64,000 nucleotides of DNA from Pseudomonadales bacterium (GCA_046582115.1 JAYGFA010000047.1:207-64206); one strand, 5' to 3'. Counted from the stretch's first letter, positions 51,485-59,516 are shown. A program made the numbers and translations. The notes: generated by a model from the sequence alone, not told the origin.

Positions 51485-51676
51485 TTACGATCCTCGATTA
51501 AGCGCAAGCCATACTCGCTCTGACGTCAGCGGCATGTCGATTGCCGAAACGCCACAACGACTGAGCGCATTGAGCACGGCATGAACTATAGCGGGTGGGG
51601 CACCGCAAGCGCCGTCCTCGCCGATCCCCTTCACACCTAATTCGTTGGACGGCTCAAGACTTTCTTGAAACTGACA
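51485..51676 (-). pseudogene. 3'-terminal remnant of a molybdopterin-binding xanthine dehydrogenase/CoxL-family large subunit
   Basis: My translation LEPSNELGVKGIGEDGACGAPPAIVHAVLNALSRCGVSAIDMPLTSERVWLALNRGS* matches the conserved C-terminus of this family. Only about 60 codons are present, with an in-frame TGA upstream. Confidence 0.6.
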
Positions 51677-51749
51677 TCAATCCTTGGCACGTGCGCGGCC
51701 GCACACCGAACGAAAATCGCTCGATTTTCTTCACCGCCCTCCCCGTTTC

Positions 51750-52004
51750 CTATTGGTGGTCCTTGTAATTAAGTCCCACGCAGAGAATCTTGTCGGGTGC
51801 AGTGATGGTTGGAAGATAGACGATTTCGCTGAGTCCATAATCGGGACCCTCGCCGATTCCTGCAGACAATTCTGTCAGCGCGTCGCCGGCGATGGCTGCT
51901 CTCAGACTATTGACGTCAGACCGAGTTCCTACATCGGCAACCCCATCACCAACCACACAGCCAAATGTTTCGAGGCCGTTCGCCGCGTACGTCAACCACT
52001 TCAT
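51750..52004 (-). pseudogene. truncated fumarylacetoacetate hydrolase (FAH) family gene, N-terminal 84 codons
   Basis: MKWLTYAANG...LPTITAPDKILCVGLNYKDHQ* is the N-terminal domain plus the start of the catalytic domain of roughly 280-aa FAH proteins. Premature TAG, and the downstream sequence is degenerate. Confidence 0.65.
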
Positions 52005-52013
52005 GACGGGTTC

Positions 52014-53099
52014 TTAGTTATCAAAAACGATGACGCTACGCGCAACTTCGCCAGTTTCGAGAGCAAGTAGCGCATCGGTGACGTCTTCAAGTTTGATACG
52101 ACTAGAAACCATATCATCCAGGTGCAACCTACCTTGCAGATAAAAGTCGATGAACCGTGGCATATCCACACGGAAGCGATTCGAGCCCATCATGGAGCCC
52201 TGAATGGTCTTTTCTTGAAGAAATTCAACACCATGTAGGGTCACCATATCGCCTGGTGGAATCATACCGATAATGGTCGCTGTACCACCCCGCCGCAGCA
52301 TCTGAAATGCCTGTTCCGCGGTCACTTTGAGGCCAATGGCCTCGAACGAATAATGCACACCACCGCCCGTGAGCGCTTGAACCTGCGACACCGCGTCACC
52401 ACCACTGGCATCGACTACATCGGTCGCGCCAAATTTACGCGCGAGTTCGAGCTTGGATGCAACCTTGTCAACGGCAATAACACGGCTGGCACCAGCGAGC
52501 GCCGCTCCATTGATACAGGACAAACCCACACCCCCGCATCCAATCACCGCAACCGTCGCTCCAGGTTCTACTGCAGCGGTGTGGATGACGGCGCCTACGC
52601 CCGTCGTCACCGCACAGCCAATGAGTGCTGCTCGATCGAGCGGCATATCTTCTCGGATCTTGACGACGGAATGCTCGTGTACGAGCATCATCTCCGCGAA
52701 TGAACCCAAATTGGCAAACTGGTTGAGGAGATCACCGCCGTGACTCAACCGCGGATCTTCAGTCGGTCCACGTCGAACTTCTGGCTCCTGACAAAGTGAC
52801 ATGTGACCGGTAAGGCAGTATTCGCAATGCCCGCAAAATACCGATAGACACGTGATCACATGGTCACCCGGCTTCACGTAACTAACATCACTACCAACTT
52901 GATCGACAATGCCCGCCGATTCGTGACCGAGCACGATCGGCAACTGTCCAGGATACGTCCCGTTGAAAAAGTGCATGTCGGAATGACACACGCCGGCGGC
53001 GGAAGTGCGGATCAGTATCTCACGGGGGCCGGGTTTCGATATCTCGATCTCCTCAACCTCCATCGGTTTGTCTACTTCTCTGAATACCGCAGCTTTCAT
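52014..53099 (-). CDS. zinc-dependent alcohol dehydrogenase (class III-like)
   Basis: GVCHSDMH, GHESAG, a structural-zinc Cys cluster CGHCEYC, GCGGVG. Start ATG 53099. Confidence 0.85.
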   Translation of the reverse strand: MKAAVFREVDKPMEVEEIEISKPGPREILIRTSAAGVCHSDMHFFNGTYPGQLPIVLGHESAGIVDQVGSDVSYVKPGDHVITCLSVFCGHCEYCLTGHMSLCQEPEVRRGPTEDPRLSHGGDLLNQFANLGSFAEMMLVHEHSVVKIREDMPLDRAALIGCAVTTGVGAVIHTAAVEPGATVAVIGCGGVGLSCINGAALAGASRVIAVDKVASKLELARKFGATDVVDASGGDAVSQVQALTGGGVHYSFEAIGLKVTAEQAFQMLRRGGTATIIGMIPPGDMVTLHGVEFLQEKTIQGSMMGSNRFRVDMPRFIDFYLQGRLHLDDMVSSRIKLEDVTDALLALETGEVARSVIVFDN

Positions 53100-53226
53100 A
53101 TCATCACCCCTGTCTGATACTTCAATCGAGTGTGCCAGACCGTCCAACCGCCCGCCACTTTACGGTATCGCAGATACACACAGAAATCGGTCTGCGTATG
53201 GTTGATTCGTCCTGCGGGCTCCGATC

Positions 53227-54189
53227 TTACGCGACGTTCGAAAGAGCCCCTTGCGCCAGCATCACTGCAGCATCGAGCGCAGCGGTTGTACCACGGCTAT
53301 CGGCAACACCGCGTCCTGCAATATCAAACGCGGTACCGTGATCGACAGAGGTACGAACAAAAGGTATCCCCAGTGTAGCCGACACGCTTTCGTGAAAATT
53401 ATGCACTTTGATAGCGATGTGTCCCTGATCGTGGTACATCGCGAGGACAACATCGAATTCGCCTTCGATCGCGCGATTGAACACCGAATCGGCTGGTAAC
53501 GGTCCGCGGGCATCGATGCCGCGTTCCTTCGCAGCCTCGACCGCAGGCCCAATCGCATCGATTTCCTCGCGACCCAGTAATCCGCCCTCTCCACCGTGCG
53601 GGTTGAGCGCCGCTACCGCAATTTTGATGCGATCGAGACCCCAGCTAGTAAGGGTCCGGTGACAAAGATCGATCTTCTCCAATACATTGTCACGGGTCAC
53701 ATATTGGCCTGCTTCGATCAACGATTTGTGCGTCGATAAATGGACTACCCGTAGGCCCGGCGTCATTAACATAGTCGCGGTCGCGTCCACGCCGGCGAGT
53801 CGAGCTAGAATCTCCTGGTGCCCGATGTCGTCATACCCAGCAGCATGGATGGCTTCTTTATTGAGCGGACAAGTCATCATCGCATCGATCTGTCCGGTCA
53901 ACGCATCGGCTGCGGCGGCTTCAACGGCTTCAACGGCTATTCGACCACATACAGGAGACACCACTCCCAGTTCGAAGTCCTCGGGCTTGTCTATTCCAAC
54001 GTCGACCAATCTATAGCGCGCGTTCGGCGACACCCCAGCGATCTCGGCACCTAACTCCAGCGCCCATTTCGTTCCATACACAACGATTTCACACTTCGTA
54101 GACGCATCATCCAAGGCCCGAGCGAAGACTTCCGGACCAATGCCAGCAGGATCACCAAGCGTCACACCGATGATTAAGTTTCCCTTCAT
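53227..54189 (-). CDS. pdxA: PdxA family dehydrogenase (4-hydroxythreonine-4-phosphate dehydrogenase-like)
   Basis: GVTLGDPAGIGPEV N-terminus, HLSTHKSL, VRTSVDHGTAFDIAG. Confidence 0.85.
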   Translation of the reverse strand: MKGNLIIGVTLGDPAGIGPEVFARALDDASTKCEIVVYGTKWALELGAEIAGVSPNARYRLVDVGIDKPEDFELGVVSPVCGRIAVEAVEAAAADALTGQIDAMMTCPLNKEAIHAAGYDDIGHQEILARLAGVDATATMLMTPGLRVVHLSTHKSLIEAGQYVTRDNVLEKIDLCHRTLTSWGLDRIKIAVAALNPHGGEGGLLGREEIDAIGPAVEAAKERGIDARGPLPADSVFNRAIEGEFDVVLAMYHDQGHIAIKVHNFHESVSATLGIPFVRTSVDHGTAFDIAGRGVADSRGTTAALDAAVMLAQGALSNVA

Positions 54190-54200
54190 GCATTCAACAT

Positions 54201-54224
54201 AATACTGTATATATATACAGTATT
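54201..54224. promoter_or_regulatory. LexA (SOS) operator, perfect consensus
   Basis: AATACTGTATATATATACAGTATT is a perfect 24-bp palindrome. The inner 20 nt equal TACTGTATATATATACAGTA. Confidence 0.8.
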
Positions 54225-54464
54225 ATGCCCAACACGATCGATGACCTGCGTATGGTGTTCGAACTTTTTGGCGTGTGCACGGCATGTCATCGAACTGAAC
54301 TACTTGATCTCGATATGCTGCACGAACGTTTCGGTCGTGACTGCCCAATCGCGAAAGTCCGTGACCGTGTTCGGTGCATCCAATGTGGCGCCTTTACCCG
54401 TGACATACGAATTGTCTACGTGGGTCGATGCGGTGTGGCTCGCGGATTCCATTATCGAACCTAG
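54225..54464 (+). CDS. hypothetical 79-aa protein with two CxxC pairs (zinc-ribbon-like)
   Basis: The ORF exactly fills the gap between pdxA and ribBA. CTAC (18-21) and CIQC (51-54). The ATG directly follows the LexA box. No SD. Confidence 0.5.
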   Translation: MPNTIDDLRMVFELFGVCTACHRTELLDLDMLHERFGRDCPIAKVRDRVRCIQCGAFTRDIRIVYVGRCGVARGFHYRT

Positions 54465-54469
54465 CTTAA

Positions 54470-55585
54470 TCAACCCGTCAGGAGCTCAGTTGCGTCCACT
54501 TCCAGCCCAAATCCATCGAGCCCAACGAAGTCCATCTCCCGCCCCGCAAGTATGCGAATGTGCTGAGCACCTAAGTCACGAAGGATTTGAGCACCTACAC
54601 CGATTTCTAACCATTCGTGCCTACGTTCGGACTCACGGCTCCTGAGCTCGCCCACGTCTTTTGAATCAAGATGATCCAGCGGAACGCCGACAAAGCCACT
54701 ACGAAGATAGATGAGAATACCCCCTCCCAATTCCCCAATTCGCTGTAGGGAGACATCGAGCAAATTATTTTCATGCTCACTCTGAGGCCCAAACACATCT
54801 TCGATCAGCTTCTCCCGATGAATTCTGACCGCCACCCCCTCGCTCGCAATGACATCACCGAAGACCAGAGCAAGATGTTCCGCATCTTCAAACTTGGTCC
54901 GGTATGCGTACGCGCGCGCCCTACCAATCCGCGTATTCACATGGAATTCTCTGCTTCTAACCACCAATTGCTCGCGGTGTTGTCTATACGCAATTAAGTC
55001 CGCAATGGAGATCATTTTGAGGCTGTGTTCCGCCGCGAACTCAACGAGATCGGTTAATCGTTTAACGGACCCGTCGTCGTTTAAAATCTCGGCAAGTAAT
55101 CCCACGTGTCCGCACCCGGCCGCTTCCGAAAGATCGATCGCTGCTTCCGTATGTCCCGATCGAACCATCACGCCTCCCGTTCTTCCAACGAGCGGGAAAA
55201 TGTGGCCAGGACGAACAAAATCCTCTGCTTGCGTGTTGTTAGTTGAAAGCGCCGCCACGGTGTTGGCACGCTCTTCAGCTGAAATACCGGTTGTTAGTCC
55301 TTTACGGTAGTCAACGCTCACCGTAAAAGCAGTCGACAGAGGCGCGTCGTTGCGGGCAACCATGGGTTCCAGATGGAGCCGCGTGGCGTGTTCTTGGTTG
55401 ATCGGCGTGCACAAAATGCCGCTGGTATGGCGAATCATAAACGCGACCTTGTCCGTCGATGCTTTCGACCCGGCCATGATCAAATCGCCTTCGTTCTCTC
55501 GATCGTCATCATCCACGACGACCACGAGTTCGCCCGCTGCAATCGCAGATATTGCGTCTTCTACCCGGTCGAATGTCGTAGCCAT
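54470..55585 (-). CDS. ribB: 3,4-dihydroxy-2-butanone-4-phosphate synthase with a degenerate GTP cyclohydrolase II-like C-terminal domain (RibBX type)
   Basis: RibB core DDDDRENEGDLIMAG. The C-terminal domain aligns to RibA, but HSEC...RCDCG is replaced by HREK...SEHEN, so no zinc cysteines remain. Confidence 0.85.
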   Translation of the reverse strand: MATTFDRVEDAISAIAAGELVVVVDDDDRENEGDLIMAGSKASTDKVAFMIRHTSGILCTPINQEHATRLHLEPMVARNDAPLSTAFTVSVDYRKGLTTGISAEERANTVAALSTNNTQAEDFVRPGHIFPLVGRTGGVMVRSGHTEAAIDLSEAAGCGHVGLLAEILNDDGSVKRLTDLVEFAAEHSLKMISIADLIAYRQHREQLVVRSREFHVNTRIGRARAYAYRTKFEDAEHLALVFGDVIASEGVAVRIHREKLIEDVFGPQSEHENNLLDVSLQRIGELGGGILIYLRSGFVGVPLDHLDSKDVGELRSRESERRHEWLEIGVGAQILRDLGAQHIRILAGREMDFVGLDGFGLEVDATELLTG

Positions 55586-55645
55586 GCACTACCCTGACTG
55601 CTAAGTTTGCGCGCCTGCAAGAGTATCACGGGGTCCACGATTACA

Positions 55646-57141
55646 GTGAAATCCGCACATTTAGCGCTGCACACGGATTTTATTATCGACACGGTCGATG
55701 ACCGAATCTTCGGCGGATTTCTCGAACACATGGGTCGCTCGATATATGAGGGGGTCTACGATCCAGAATCCACGCACGCCGATGAAGATGGCATTAGAAC
55801 TGACGTTATCGAAGCGCTACGCCAACTTGAAATCTCGGTCGTGCGCTATCCCGGTGGTAATTTTGCCTCGGGTTATACTTGCTCGACGGCGTTGGAGCAA
55901 AATCAGCGCGTCCCGTGGTCAGAGAGTTGGCGTGGCAAAGCGTCGAGCCGAACCAATTTGGCACTGATGAATTTATCCAGCTGTGCCGTAAACTGGACTG
56001 GACGCCGATGCTTGCCGTCAATCTCGGTACGGGTACACCGGAGGAGGCACGTAACTGGGTCGAATACTGCAACGCCCAAGCGGGGACAAAATTTGCCGAC
56101 ATGCGTGTCGAAAACGGCAGTGTGACGCCGCACGCAGTACCTCTTTGGTGTCTCGGAAACGAAATGGACGGGCCGTGGCAACTTGGTCATGTTCCCGCCG
56201 GCGAATACGCTATTTCCGCGCAACAAGCCGCCAAGATGATGAAAGGGTGTGATCGCACGATTCAGACCGTCGCGTGTGGTTCATCGGGTCCCCAAATGCC
56301 AACGTTTGGCGATTGGGATCGGACAATCCTTGAAGAAATGGGGGCAGGACTTGCGGACTATATAAGTTTGCATCGATACGTAGGCAATCCAGACGGCAAC
56401 CTGACAGACTACCTGGCACTGTCCAACGCGATCGATCAACAAATCGAAACCATCGACGCATGTGCTCGGTACGTGCAAGGAAAGCGCCGATCCAGCCGTC
56501 GTTCCTACCTATGCTTCGACGAGTGGAACGTTTGGTATCGCGCCCGAGGTGGTAGTCACAGCGATGGACAAGGCCAATTTGCACCGCACCTAATCGAAGA
56601 GCGGTACAACTTTGAGGATGCCCTTGTGGTAGCCATGTTTCTCATGAGTTTTGTTCGACACGCCGATGCGGTCAAAATCGCCAACCTAGCGCAGCTAGTG
56701 AACGTTATCGGCCCGATCCAGACCCGCGGCAATCAACTTCTTAAGCAGTCCATTTATTACGCCTTCCAAATGATCTCCGCACGCAAAGGAGGCATTGCCC
56801 TTCGACATTCCATTACCTCCAACGGGTACGAAAGCGGTGTCTACGGATACGTCAATGATCTCGACAGCGCTTCGATCATCGAAGGCAACCTCCTGAAAGT
56901 CTTTGCGCTTAATCGCGATCCCGTGGAACCAATGGAATTGAAAATCTCCGTTGCTGATCAAAGTATTGATCGTGTGGTTACATCGGACATCCTGCACGCC
57001 GAGTCTACCGATGCTTCCAACGACTTTGACGATCCTGAGGTCGTCGTGTCGCGCAGATACGAGGGTTGGGTGATCCAAAACGATGCGACGACTCAAATCC
57101 CGCCGCTTGGACTGACTGCGACGACATTTGAACTGGCCTGA
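55646..57141 (+). pseudogene. GH51 alpha-L-arabinofuranosidase interrupted by a -1 frame change near 55880
   Basis: Frame 1 reads DDRIFGGFLEHMGRSIYEGVY...RYPGGNFASGY. Frame 2 continues LDGVGAKSARP...NQFGTDEF...CLGNEMDGPWQ...CFDEWNVW (both catalytic Glu motifs). A single extra G (ACT TGG CTC) would restore GYTWLDGVG. Confidence 0.8.
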
Positions 57142-57149
57142 ACCCTCGC

Positions 57150-58340
57150 TTAGATCGCGTCTGCCGCGCGCAATTCGTCAATATGTTGAGGACTCAGATT
57201 CAACAGATCACCGTAGACGGCTTCGTTGTCCGCACCTACCCCACTCGGTAACTTGACCTCGGGTGGCTCAACATCGTTAAACCGGAGCGGCGTGCTCGGC
57301 AGCGTCACGGTTCCGTATTTCGGATGCGAAACTTTGGTTAACGCTCCGCGTTCCAAAAGGTGCGGATCATTAACAACCTCGTCCAACGATTGAACCGGTG
57401 CGCAGATGACATCGTGCGTCTGACAAATACGAAAAACGCCTTCCTTAGTCTGCGTCTGGGTCCATTCTTCGACCACTGCATCGGTAGCTTCCATGTTGGT
57501 CGAGCGAGCTACCATGTCCACAAATCTGGGATCATTTTCTAGGTCCGTGCGCTCCATTGCTTCCAGCAACCGTTTCCAGTGATTTTCGCGGATACAGATA
57601 ATGGCCACGTGTCCATCGTTGGTGGCATACACGTTGTAAGGAGCGACCGAAAGCGCTTGGTGGTGATTGCCTGTACGCGGCGGATTGCCACCTGCCAGGT
57701 AATACGCTCCAAGCGCCGAACACAACGTCGGAAACACCGCATCCTGCATCGCGACATCGAGAATCGCTCCACGACCGGTACGTTCGCGACGATATAACGC
57801 CGTGGTGATGGCGCCGTATAGATGCACTCCACCGAGGATGTCGCAAAGAGCGGGCCCAGACTTCAGCGGTGGTTCGCCCTCGTTGCCGGTGATGGCGACT
57901 ACACCAGTCATGGCTTGGACCGTTACATCCATCGCCAGATAATCGCGATGCGGTCCACCTTGCCCATAACCGGTTGCGGCCGCGTATATAAGGCCTGGAT
58001 TCAACGCCGTCAATGTTTCGCTGCCAACCTGGTTGCGTTCCATCGTTCCAGGCGCAAAATTCTCGATTAGTACGTCTGCGTGAGCCGTAAGTTCTTTCAA
58101 TAAATTGCGACCACGATCGGACTTTAGATTCAGTGTGATGGTCTCTTTGTTACCGTTCAGCATGCAAAAGGGGTAGCTCGAACTCACATCGCTTGAGCGA
58201 CCGCGCATCCCTTCGCCTCCCGGCGCTTCGATCTTGATTACGCGGGCACCCGACATCGCTAACAAATAGCCACAATAGGGTCCGTTGTATATTTGCCCCA
58301 TATCGAGAACCACAACATCCTTTAGCGGTAGGTCAGTCAC
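57150..58340 (-). CDS. CaiB/BaiF family (type III) CoA-transferase
   Basis: LKDVVVLDMGQIYNGPYCGYLLAMSGARVIKIE. GTG 58340 is preceded by AAGGAAG (the ORF is open to 58376). Confidence 0.85.
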   Translation of the reverse strand: MTDLPLKDVVVLDMGQIYNGPYCGYLLAMSGARVIKIEAPGGEGMRGRSSDVSSSYPFCMLNGNKETITLNLKSDRGRNLLKELTAHADVLIENFAPGTMERNQVGSETLTALNPGLIYAAATGYGQGGPHRDYLAMDVTVQAMTGVVAITGNEGEPPLKSGPALCDILGGVHLYGAITTALYRRERTGRGAILDVAMQDAVFPTLCSALGAYYLAGGNPPRTGNHHQALSVAPYNVYATNDGHVAIICIRENHWKRLLEAMERTDLENDPRFVDMVARSTNMEATDAVVEEWTQTQTKEGVFRICQTHDVICAPVQSLDEVVNDPHLLERGALTKVSHPKYGTVTLPSTPLRFNDVEPPEVKLPSGVGADNEAVYGDLLNLSPQHIDELRAADAI

Positions 58341-58419
58341 TTCACTCTTCCTTGCGCAATCATGAGCAGCGACCACCTTACCAAAACTCCATCTCCATCC
58401 AGCTATAATTCGAATCGCT

Positions 58420-58496
58420 GCGCCCGTAGCTCAACTGGATAGAGCACCAGGCTTCGAACCTGGGGGTTCGGGGTTCGAGTCCCTGCGGGCGCGCCA
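58420..58496 (+). tRNA. tRNA-Arg (anticodon UCG)
   Basis: Hand-folded cloverleaf: acceptor GCGCCCG/CGGGCGC, D arm GCTC-AACTGGATA-GAGC (A20), anticodon arm CCAGG-CTTCGAA-CCTGG, T arm CGGGG-TTCGAGT-CCCTG, G73, encoded CCA. TATAAT lies at 58404-58409. Confidence 0.9.
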
Positions 58497-58544
58497 TTTG
58501 TTTCTTTGAGTTGTCGCGAGGACGAAAAAGGAAACGTTTTCGCC

Positions 58545-58560
58545 CTGTATAGGTATACAG
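58545..58560. promoter_or_regulatory. LexA-type box CTGTATAGGTATACAG
   Basis: CTGT-N8-ACAG with perfect 7-nt inverted arms CTGTATA/TATACAG, 58 nt upstream of the GTG start at 58619. Confidence 0.55.
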
Positions 58561-58618
58561 CTAACGCTTGCATTAGTGGTCAAATGACTCCTGCTTCCCA
58601 ATACCAGAAGGCCTTCGT

Positions 58619-59068
58619 GTGAGTTCAACAAGAACGTTCATTGGTGTGACGGTTGCGTTGATGTTGGTATTGTCGAGCTGTGGGTTGGTTCAACAATCGA
58701 TACAGCGACCGGCAATAAGTGCTGAAGACACGAGATTGATCATCGATGCGCTGATTGAAGACCTACCGATACCGCCGAACTCGGAAATTCGTAATCGTGA
58801 ATCCGTAATTCTTGGGAGTGGTCTCGGCTGGGGCGGGCGTATAGGCATTGATGATCCGTTGAGCCCGGCAGAAACATTATTGTTTTTTCGCGAACAGATA
58901 CCCGCAAGTGGATGGACTCTGAGCAGTTCCACGGTTGGACGGTCGATCATTATGGTCTTCGAAAAACCGGACCGAATGGCGACCGTTGAGATTTTCAAAG
59001 GTACAAGATTTGGTCCTAACACAGACGTCACAATCTCTGTAGTCCCGCGACTTCTAATGGGAAATTAA
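58619..59068 (+). CDS. hypothetical lipoprotein
   Basis: Signal plus lipobox TFIGVTVALMLVLSS|C. SD AGAAGG before GTG 58619. No family recognised. Confidence 0.65.
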   Translation: MSSTRTFIGVTVALMLVLSSCGLVQQSIQRPAISAEDTRLIIDALIEDLPIPPNSEIRNRESVILGSGLGWGGRIGIDDPLSPAETLLFFREQIPASGWTLSSSTVGRSIIMVFEKPDRMATVEIFKGTRFGPNTDVTISVVPRLLMGN

Positions 59069-59072
59069 TACC

Positions 59073-59516
59073 GTGACTCCACGCAACAGATCTTTTTGGA
59101 TAAGGCGAATACACCGTATAGCGCTGTTTATTTTGTCCATTGGCATAGCCGTTGCTACCCCTGCGGAACCCGTCTCTTTAGAGTGTAGATACGTGAACGA
59201 GGACACCAGCCCTGATTGGATAGCTCTCGTGCAATTCGACTCGGAAGCCGGCGACGCTTCGTTAACGGGATACCCGGTTACCTATACCGATCAACCAAAC
59301 TTCCATCGAGTTATTGAACGATTGCCTATGGACAGAACCCCGGGAGAAGTTGTCGTGCGGCGAGCCGACTCCGAAAAGACTTACCGGATCGATCGCCGAA
59401 CGCTGGAAAGCCGGACCGTGAGAAAACGCATCTCGGAAGTTGGCACGATCGAAACACTGACTCAATTTGGGAAATGCGAGATATTAAACAATGAAGTAGG
59501 CGATCGCCTCTTCTGA
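59073..59516 (+). CDS. hypothetical exported protein
   Basis: Starts 4 nt after the previous gene. N-terminal signal/anchor RRIHRIALFILSIGIAVATPAEP. No family recognised. Confidence 0.55.
   Translation: MTPRNRSFWIRRIHRIALFILSIGIAVATPAEPVSLECRYVNEDTSPDWIALVQFDSEAGDASLTGYPVTYTDQPNFHRVIERLPMDRTPGEVVVRRADSEKTYRIDRRTLESRTVRKRISEVGTIETLTQFGKCEILNNEVGDRLF

Follow-up and report, generated by a model that had tools for sequence, protein, structure and literature searches.

A conserved LexA-type operator on the start codon of a small gene points to a new zinc-ribbon SOS protein in Pseudomonadales

Introduction

The small effectors of the SOS response include DinI, YebG, SulA and SbmC/GyrI in Escherichia coli and its relatives, along with the lineage-specific SidA, YneA and DdrR. 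Beyond model organisms, SOS regulons are mostly inferred, and their lineage-specific members often carry new biology, examples being division inhibitors, RecA modulators and toxins. In E. coli, LexA sites with a perfect consensus are tightly repressed and released late, and a single LexA box can serve both of two divergent genes, as it does at uvrA-ssb. Promoters overlapped by an operator are also found in front of leaderless mRNAs, such as lambda cI transcribed from PRM and tetR of Tn1721. Leaderless mRNAs are rare in Gammaproteobacteria, and we know of no leaderless LexA-regulon gene described in this class. Full-text literature searching returned no leaderless LexA-regulated gene, no zinc-ribbon SOS protein and no link between ribB and LexA.

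Here we analyse a window of 64,000 nucleotides, the whole stretch of DNA under study, from a Pseudomonadales bacterium, in which a LexA-type operator abuts the start codon of a 79-residue open reading frame, termed ORF79. The reading that we favour, with a probability of about 0.72, is that this conserved operator controls the small gene, which would be LexA-repressed, leaderless or nearly so, and would encode a new zinc-ribbon SOS protein. Like the known small SOS effectors, ORF79 is about 80 residues long, lies behind a strong LexA box, belongs to one lineage and presumably binds a partner instead of acting as a catalyst; unlike them, it has no family relationship, a Cys4 site, no membrane segment and an apparently leaderless layout.

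The arrangement of the locus also has partial precedents. As at uvrA-ssb, one palindromic operator lies between divergent genes, whose starts are here 35 nt apart and which are both plausibly repressed. Unlike at uvrA-ssb, both candidate -10 elements would fall inside the window operator, one partner is predicted to be leaderless and the other sits behind a 4-codon ORF, and the second partner is a metabolic operon whose distance from the box is not conserved. The predicted 5′ end at or near the AUG, the missing Shine-Dalgarno (SD) sequence and the repressor site on the core promoter recall lambda cI and Tn1721 tetR, with the differences that the regulator of ORF79 would be LexA and that its 5′ end is predicted from sequence. 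For Gammaproteobacteria the layout is unusual, combining an operator that abuts the ATG, no SD, a mirror ATG on the opposite strand and a 3′ overlap with a riboflavin gene, and the packing of operator, promoter and translation start into about 30 bp makes it a compact natural example.

Results and discussion

The operator and the start of ORF79

A motif of the CTGT-N8-ACAG type is the established LexA site of E. coli and Pseudomonas (PMC5544203). At 54203..54222 (no strand assigned) the window matches the LexA-box consensus TACTGTATATATATACAGTA at 20 of 20 positions; this consensus is the gammaproteobacterial one, the host's own motif being assumed from its class. An earlier, sequence-only reading of this DNA had equated the same 20 nt with the idealised SOS box, correctly, and had placed them in a perfect 24-bp palindrome, AATACTGTATATATATACAGTATT (54201-54224). 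The symmetry of that element stands and its length does not, as it is the inner part of a perfect 30-bp palindrome, CATAATACTGTATATATATACAGTATTATG, at 54198..54227 (no strand assigned), which begins with CAT and ends with the ATG of ORF79. The start codon at 54225 thus falls inside the palindrome. Within the 64-kb window the 20-mer is matched once, even with three mismatches allowed, and 0 of 100 dinucleotide shuffles contained a match; the loose CTGT-N8-ACAG pattern occurs twice (54205 and 58545), compared with 0.64 expected. Neither lexA nor recA was found within the window or among the fetched loci.

Predicted folding of the palindrome gives an RNA hairpin of -13.5 kcal/mol (z = -5.3) on the plus strand and one of -22 kcal/mol on the minus strand, the latter ending right before the AUG of the divergent pdxA-family gene. 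Just outside the 20-mer, the window has an A-T pair where the related loci L007 and L010 have T-A and L009 has G-C, so that both sides have changed with the symmetry kept. This pattern fits either selection on a hairpin or the template-switch correction of quasi-palindromes, which can also yield symmetric changes. The LexA reading stands all the same, because what the core keeps is its sequence and not mere complementarity. A further relative, L008, has C in place of T in the right arm, which leaves an A.C mismatch on the plus strand and a G.U pair on the minus strand.

ORF79 itself (54225..54464, plus strand) encodes a four-cysteine protein with a pI of 8.7. The sequence-only reading had described an ORF with two CxxC pairs that fills a 280-bp gap and has no SD, and each of these statements holds. 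ORF79 lies between the start of the pdxA-family gene (54189, minus strand) and the stop of ribBA (54470, minus strand), its CxxC pairs are C18/C21 and C51/C54, and the 20 nt upstream of its start are operator, with an anti-SD duplex energy of 0. In the 29 orthologous loci where only 1 or 4 nt separate the ACAG half-site from the ATG, there is no room for an SD. Its lack is not exceptional by itself, because only about 37% of crudely called starts in the window have a strong one; the telling feature is the geometry of box and ATG.

ORF79 as a protein-coding gene

Relatives of ORF79 were sought at increasing depth. A word-indexed search found three 79-residue relatives with 81-97% identity on eight metagenomic contigs, all of which share the gene order pdxA, ORF, ribBA. 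An exhaustive phmmer search extended the set to 84 representative clusters of homologs, and a profile search to at least 137, most of them 73-113 residues long. In public sources these homologs are called as genes; wherever they are named, the name is 'hypothetical protein', and none carries a Pfam domain.

Comparison with the closest relatives indicates purifying selection, which the sequence-only reading had proposed to look for. By the Nei-Gojobori method, dN/dS comes to 0.09 for the comparison with L007 and 0.15 for that with L001, at dS of 0.44-0.80, and third codon positions hold 32 of the 49 differences. Across 60 family sequences C18, C21, C51 and C54 are invariant; the two further cysteines of ORF79, C40 and C69, are not conserved. 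Near-invariance in the family extends to R23, G37, R46 and R62, to the IRIVYVG strand and to the FxY(R) tail. ORF79 diverges faster than its neighbour genes, at 81% identity compared with 91-93%, and at 35-42% compared with 58-67%. The substitution pattern and the invariant cysteines mark ORF79 as a real protein-coding gene, and by profile comparison it represents an uncharacterised protein family without a curated profile.

The predicted fold of the ORF79 product

An AlphaFold2 model built with 60 sequences is fairly confident (pLDDT 81, pTM 0.68). It comprises a helix (residues 5-11), strands at 12-18 and 24-26, helices at 29-36 and 42-46, a strand at 61-67 and a disordered tail (71-79), and from the model and fold comparison the protein is predicted to carry a rubredoxin-like pair of zinc knuckles. 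Rubredoxins, in which two CxxCG knuckles form an iron site in a domain of about 54 residues, also head the Foldseek matches in the PDB and share the knuckle topology; these matches are weak (E about 0.15-0.2, TM 0.40-0.53), and none in the PDB falls below E 0.1. Among BFVD models one unnamed 87-residue phage protein matches the fold (TM 0.67), a resemblance from which we draw no conclusion. As in rubredoxin, YacG and the HypA zinc site, two CxxC knuckles lie about 30 residues apart and form one predicted metal site; ORF79 differs in the extra helices of its model between the knuckles, the conserved IRIVYVG strand and the FHYR tail.

Searches of the window protein and of family members against Pfam, NCBIfam, PHROGs and PADLOC gave no significant match, the sub-cutoff matches (Zn_ribbon_LapB, zf-CCHC_6, CxC7 and DUF7351) all being far under their cutoffs. 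By hmmscan of the window protein (E<=10) and of 60 family members (E<=1), the ORF79 family matched none of DinI (PF06183), YebG (PF07130), SulA (PF03846) and YacG (PF03884), and neither ORF79 nor the family members matched Rubredoxin (PF00301) in Pfam. These profile searches agree with the sequence-only reading, which had not recognised the ORF as any named SOS product and had suggested profile-HMM and structure-prediction searches; these yielded no curated family and a rubredoxin-like zinc-knuckle model. Sequence-profile and fold searches together gave no significant match to any characterised protein, and domain fusions among the remote homologs (P0016, P0039, P0031 and others) gave no further clue.

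Two other ideas about the protein were considered and dropped. A PDB profile matched cytochrome c1 (E about 0.007) through a CxxCH-like string, and heme binding was rejected because H22 of that string is not conserved in the family. An origin in a mobile element was rejected after phage, plasmid and viral-contig searches were negative: no ORF79 match emerged when 50,697 phage records and 72,556 plasmid records were searched by tblastn, and a scan of IMG/VR viral contigs gave no homolog.

Conservation of the box upstream of ORF79

To place the box in a wider context, we scanned one genome per GTDB species, which yielded 31 loci, all from metagenome-assembled genomes (MAGs) labelled Gammaproteobacteria or Pseudomonadales, some of them Candidatus Azotimanducaceae. 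Complete MAG chromosomes with the gene include OZ246983.1, OZ244128.1, OZ247498.1 and OZ245934.1. Further divergent orthologs were added through contig look-ups, and the box was assessed in a set of 33 non-redundant orthologous loci. The co-occurrence of box and ORF, which the earlier reading had put forward as a check, holds in nearly all of this set: 32 of the 33 orthologous genomes have a LexA-like box no more than 40 nt ahead of the start codon, the exception being L023 (74 nt), and the spacing is 1 or 4 nt in 29. The distance from ACAG to ATG is 1 nt in 25 loci, where the final A of the 20-mer doubles as the A of the ATG, and 4 nt in four, namely the window and its clade (L009, L010 and L012). 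L021 and L027 show the 4-nt spacing in one of two comparisons, though they are tallied as gap 1 in the 33-locus count. The four most divergent or exceptional loci have distances of 10, 22, 38 and 74 nt.

Over the 33 loci, information content reaches about 2 bits per position across CTGTATAT and ATACAG, compared with 0-0.4 bits over the 45 upstream nucleotides and about 0.2 in the flanks; the profile has fixed CTGTAT and ATACAG arms, a free centre and free flanks. In nine close relatives the box core is invariant while dS at ORF79 reaches 0.44-0.8, which means that synonymous sites are, unlike the box core, far from saturated conservation. The 34 related loci, 250,711 nt in all, contain 30 exact CTGT-N8-ACAG sites, with chance alone predicting about 3. 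Of these sites, 28 lie at most 80 nt upstream of an ORF79 homolog, and the remaining two correspond by orthology to a second box in the window, described below. In six orthologs the right arm is degraded to CCAG or CCAC, and LexA would be expected to bind such boxes less strongly.

The pairing also extends beyond the conserved gene neighbourhood. In a non-syntenic, P0050-like subfamily (L045 and L046, 64% GC, different neighbours), the only box of the locus lies 22 nt before the ATG. Over-extended gene calls of several family members translate through their boxes, giving N-terminal strings such as TVYIYS, LYIRTV and YCMFIQ. The remote subfamilies L047 and L048-50 have no such box upstream, and in these box-less subfamilies the upstream regions contained no alpha-type GTTC-N7-GTTC, Gram-positive GAAC-N4-GTTC or Xanthomonas-like LexA motif. 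Across the orthologous loci, the pairing of box and ORF79 is retained by dozens of Pseudomonadales, uncultured bacteria of sea and soil. LexA control of ORF79 is thereby supported by an unusually clean phylogenetic footprint over an order-level group.

The divergent pdxA-like operon

The gene divergent from ORF79 (53227..54189, minus strand) encodes a pdxA-family dehydrogenase, scoring 316 bits on TIGR00557 (cutoff 290). It lacks an SD, starts 13 nt from the operator and heads a minus-strand pdxA-ADH-(FAH-XDH) cluster; in 24-28 loci the pdxA-like gene, the ADH gene and the FAA-hydrolase gene are divergent from the ORF79 homolog. The sequence-only reading had offered, as its alternative, that the operator acts on this transcript; ORF79 would then be a mere passenger. 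After fixing the pdxA start in each locus by its GDPAGIG motif, we measured its distance from the box, which is 5-18 nt in 18 loci (13 nt in the window), 25-141 nt in eight and 594 nt in L015; in L040 it is 2820 nt, with three genes inserted between, and in four ambiguous loci the box and pdxA overlap. With the pdxA distance this variable and that to ORF79 kept, the box staying within about 40 nt of the latter and in most loci 1-4 nt from it, the invariant partner of the box is ORF79. Furthermore, the non-syntenic subfamily keeps its box with no pdxA neighbour, and the pdxA operon contains no DNA-damage-related gene. We therefore regard the pdxA operon as an unlikely sole target, and service to pdxA as not the primary role of the operator.

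A share in the control of pdxA is a different matter. In L030 and L031 the box and the pdxA ATG are 13 nt apart and the intervening sequence includes an SD (GGGAG), so the pdxA transcript of these loci must begin in or beyond the box. Where pdxA is this close, its transcript would have to begin in or at the operator, which makes co-repression of the pdxA-like operon likely in the clades concerned. The clade of the window is one in which the divergent operon is probably also repressed by the same operator; as a general statement, that the pdxA-like operon is an additional target in some clades has, in our estimate, close to even odds, leaning slightly against.

A further feature bears on the SD-less pdxA start of the window. 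At 54186..54200 on the minus strand, clade comparison picks out a 4-codon mini-ORF, ATG TTG AAT GCA TGA (MLNA*), whose ATG (54200-54198) is the mirror image of that of ORF79 and whose stop codon shares the sequence ATGA with the pdxA start. Six of the seven distinct haplotypes of the window clade preserve both the frame and this overlap, with a variable peptide (MLNA, MLRP, MLNT or MLSP); in L011 the overlap reads GTGA, and in L009 the mini-ORF is lost through a change of ATG to ACG. The mini-ORF may couple translation to pdxA from a leaderless start. As a hypothesis only, one palindromic promoter-operator would then carry two mirror leaderless starts, with pdxA translated by reinitiation. This arrangement, like the proximity of box and pdxA, speaks for some role of the operator in pdxA expression, and the preferred reading, LexA control of ORF79, is compatible with the divergent gene being regulated as well.

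Further along the same cluster, at 51485-52004 (minus strand), the FAA-hydrolase gene downstream of the ADH gene is truncated in the window, only residues 1-91 of a 283-residue ortholog matching, at 51738-52004. The gene for the xanthine-dehydrogenase-like Mo-subunit, which relatives carry, is missing from the window, with a possible short C-terminal remnant at 51485-51634. From these matches, the pdxA-ADH-FAH-XDH cluster of the window looks like it has suffered a deletion.

The convergent ribBA gene

On its other side ORF79 faces a ribBA-type gene (54470..55585, minus strand), whose stop lies 5 nt from that of ORF79. The RibB domain of this gene passes its cutoff and the RibA-like C-terminal domain scores 36 bits, with a cutoff of 206, and the gene may resemble the 'RibBX' variant described in Proteobacteria. 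The convergent pairing is found in 31 of 32 loci, including those from which pdxA has moved away. A gap of 5-87 nt separates the stops in 14 loci, and in 17 of the 32 the frames overlap by exactly 61 nt (L014-L017, L024-L026, L028, L030, L031, L033-L036, L038 and L039); in the window the coding regions do not overlap. Together, the 5-nt gap of the window and the 61-nt overlaps resemble convergent cis-antisense pairs. In the overlapping loci the stop after FHYR is lost and the frame runs into the 3′ end of ribBA in antisense, which explains the conserved '...SSVSPKPDTPT' tails of these homologs. A reading of the tails as a domain or repeat was rejected; they are the antisense of the conserved RibBA C-terminus.

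A scan of 54000-54700 predicted no terminator between ORF79 and ribBA, and Rfam models found only the tRNA in 53000-59200, with no FMN riboswitch at this ribBA copy and no known sRNA. Given the convergence and the lack of a predicted terminator, SOS-induced transcription of ORF79 would have to run into the 3′ end of ribBA, and a secondary antisense effect on ribBA is possible. It is a far stronger proposal that the main product of the locus is the antisense transcript itself, induced by the SOS response and lowering ribBA expression by collision or through a 3′ RNA duplex. The persistent convergence, the close or overlapping stops and the riboswitch-less ribBA copy would suit such a role, which we nevertheless judge improbable: ORF79 is constrained as a protein, with its low dN/dS, Cys4 motif and confident fold, none of which an antisense RNA needs, and the P0050 subfamily keeps box and protein with no ribBA at all.

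Lastly, we consider it very improbable that the palindrome is a structural hairpin of read-through RNA from ribBA to pdxA, or the site of another dimeric regulator, its SOS-box identity then being a coincidence: the window-clade palindrome does extend 5 bp past the 20-mer on each side, with a covarying flanking pair and a stable minus-strand hairpin next to the pdxA AUG, but outside this clade it does not extend past the box, the conservation profile is LexA-like and preserves sequence identity beyond complementarity, the same genomes have another conserved CTGTATA..TATACAG site, in a different intergenic region, which speaks for a trans-acting factor of this specificity, and no Rfam family matches.

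A model for ORF79 regulation and function

The LexA reading of the operator leads to a simple model of how ORF79 may be expressed. In 19 of the 33 loci the hexamer TATATT lies in the left half of the box, TATATA being the alternative, and it ends 8 nt before the ATG in the 1-nt group. As a -10-like element 7-8 nt upstream of the start codon, it predicts a transcription start 0-3 nt from the AUG, and hence a leaderless or near-leaderless mRNA; the ORF79 transcript would have no leader or one of at most about 5 nt. A consensus scan of 54000-54700 found no sigma-70 promoter, and no -35 element is conserved except TTGACC, at 18 nt, in three Azotimanducaceae loci; with a negative scan and a good -35 in these three loci only, the promoter is one that we infer. 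A transcript beginning further upstream would bury the AUG in the plus-strand hairpin of -13.5 kcal/mol.

In this model the operator would cover both the core promoter and the start region of ORF79, so that a bound LexA dimer would exclude RNA polymerase. DNA damage would free the ORF79 promoter through RecA-stimulated self-cleavage of LexA. The perfect match of the window box to the consensus suggests very tight repression and late induction.

At roughly 9 kDa, the product would be a mildly basic protein whose four cysteines form a single metal site, with knuckles like those of rubredoxin or of zinc ribbons. Conservation extends to arginine and aromatic residues and to the flexible FHYR tail. 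Because of this combination of knuckle fold, conserved arginines and aromatics, and flexible conserved tail, the predicted structure suggests that ORF79 most likely acts stoichiometrically, binding nucleic acid or a protein partner in the damage response.

A more elaborate version of the model can be drawn, in which ORF79 is a Cys4 zinc-ribbon effector of a new SOS class, made only under severe damage. Here a bidirectional promoter inside the perfect LexA operator would give two mirror leaderless transcripts, the effector mRNA serving also as ribBA antisense and pdxA being translated by termination and reinitiation at the 4-codon ORF, and the protein would block or modulate a core process such as replication, division, RecA or gyrase, in a lineage with no other protein assigned to that role. 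Taken as a whole this version is speculative, and we think it doubtful that all of its parts hold.

For the simpler reading, the conserved footprint makes ORF79 credible as a new SOS-response gene and a candidate SOS effector. In our assignment from comparative evidence, it is a LexA-regulon gene of the lineage-specific small-SOS type, of which the protein family and the layout with the operator on the start codon are the new part. If the target of ORF79 were found, the DNA-damage response would gain a new effector.

Further LexA-like boxes and candidate operons

In the non-syntenic subfamily, the ORF79 homolog of 74 residues is followed on the same strand by ORFs of 99 and 61 residues, which belong to no family (L045, 5256-5782; L046, 2599-3125). 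Judging from this arrangement, the three-ORF run may be a small SOS operon.

The second exact CTGT-N8-ACAG box of the window, CTGTATAGGTATACAG, is at 58545-58560, between a tRNA-Arg(TCG) gene (58420-58496) and two small plus-strand ORFs (58619-59068 and 59073-59516). These encode a lipoprotein-like protein of 149 residues and a protein of 147 residues, with no match in Pfam or NCBIfam. The box is conserved in L010 and L011 as CTGTATGG(T/G)TATACAG, the two ORFs being 87% and 80% identical at the amino-acid level and the flanks diverged. On this conservation, the box at 58545 and the two ORFs are a candidate second SOS operon.
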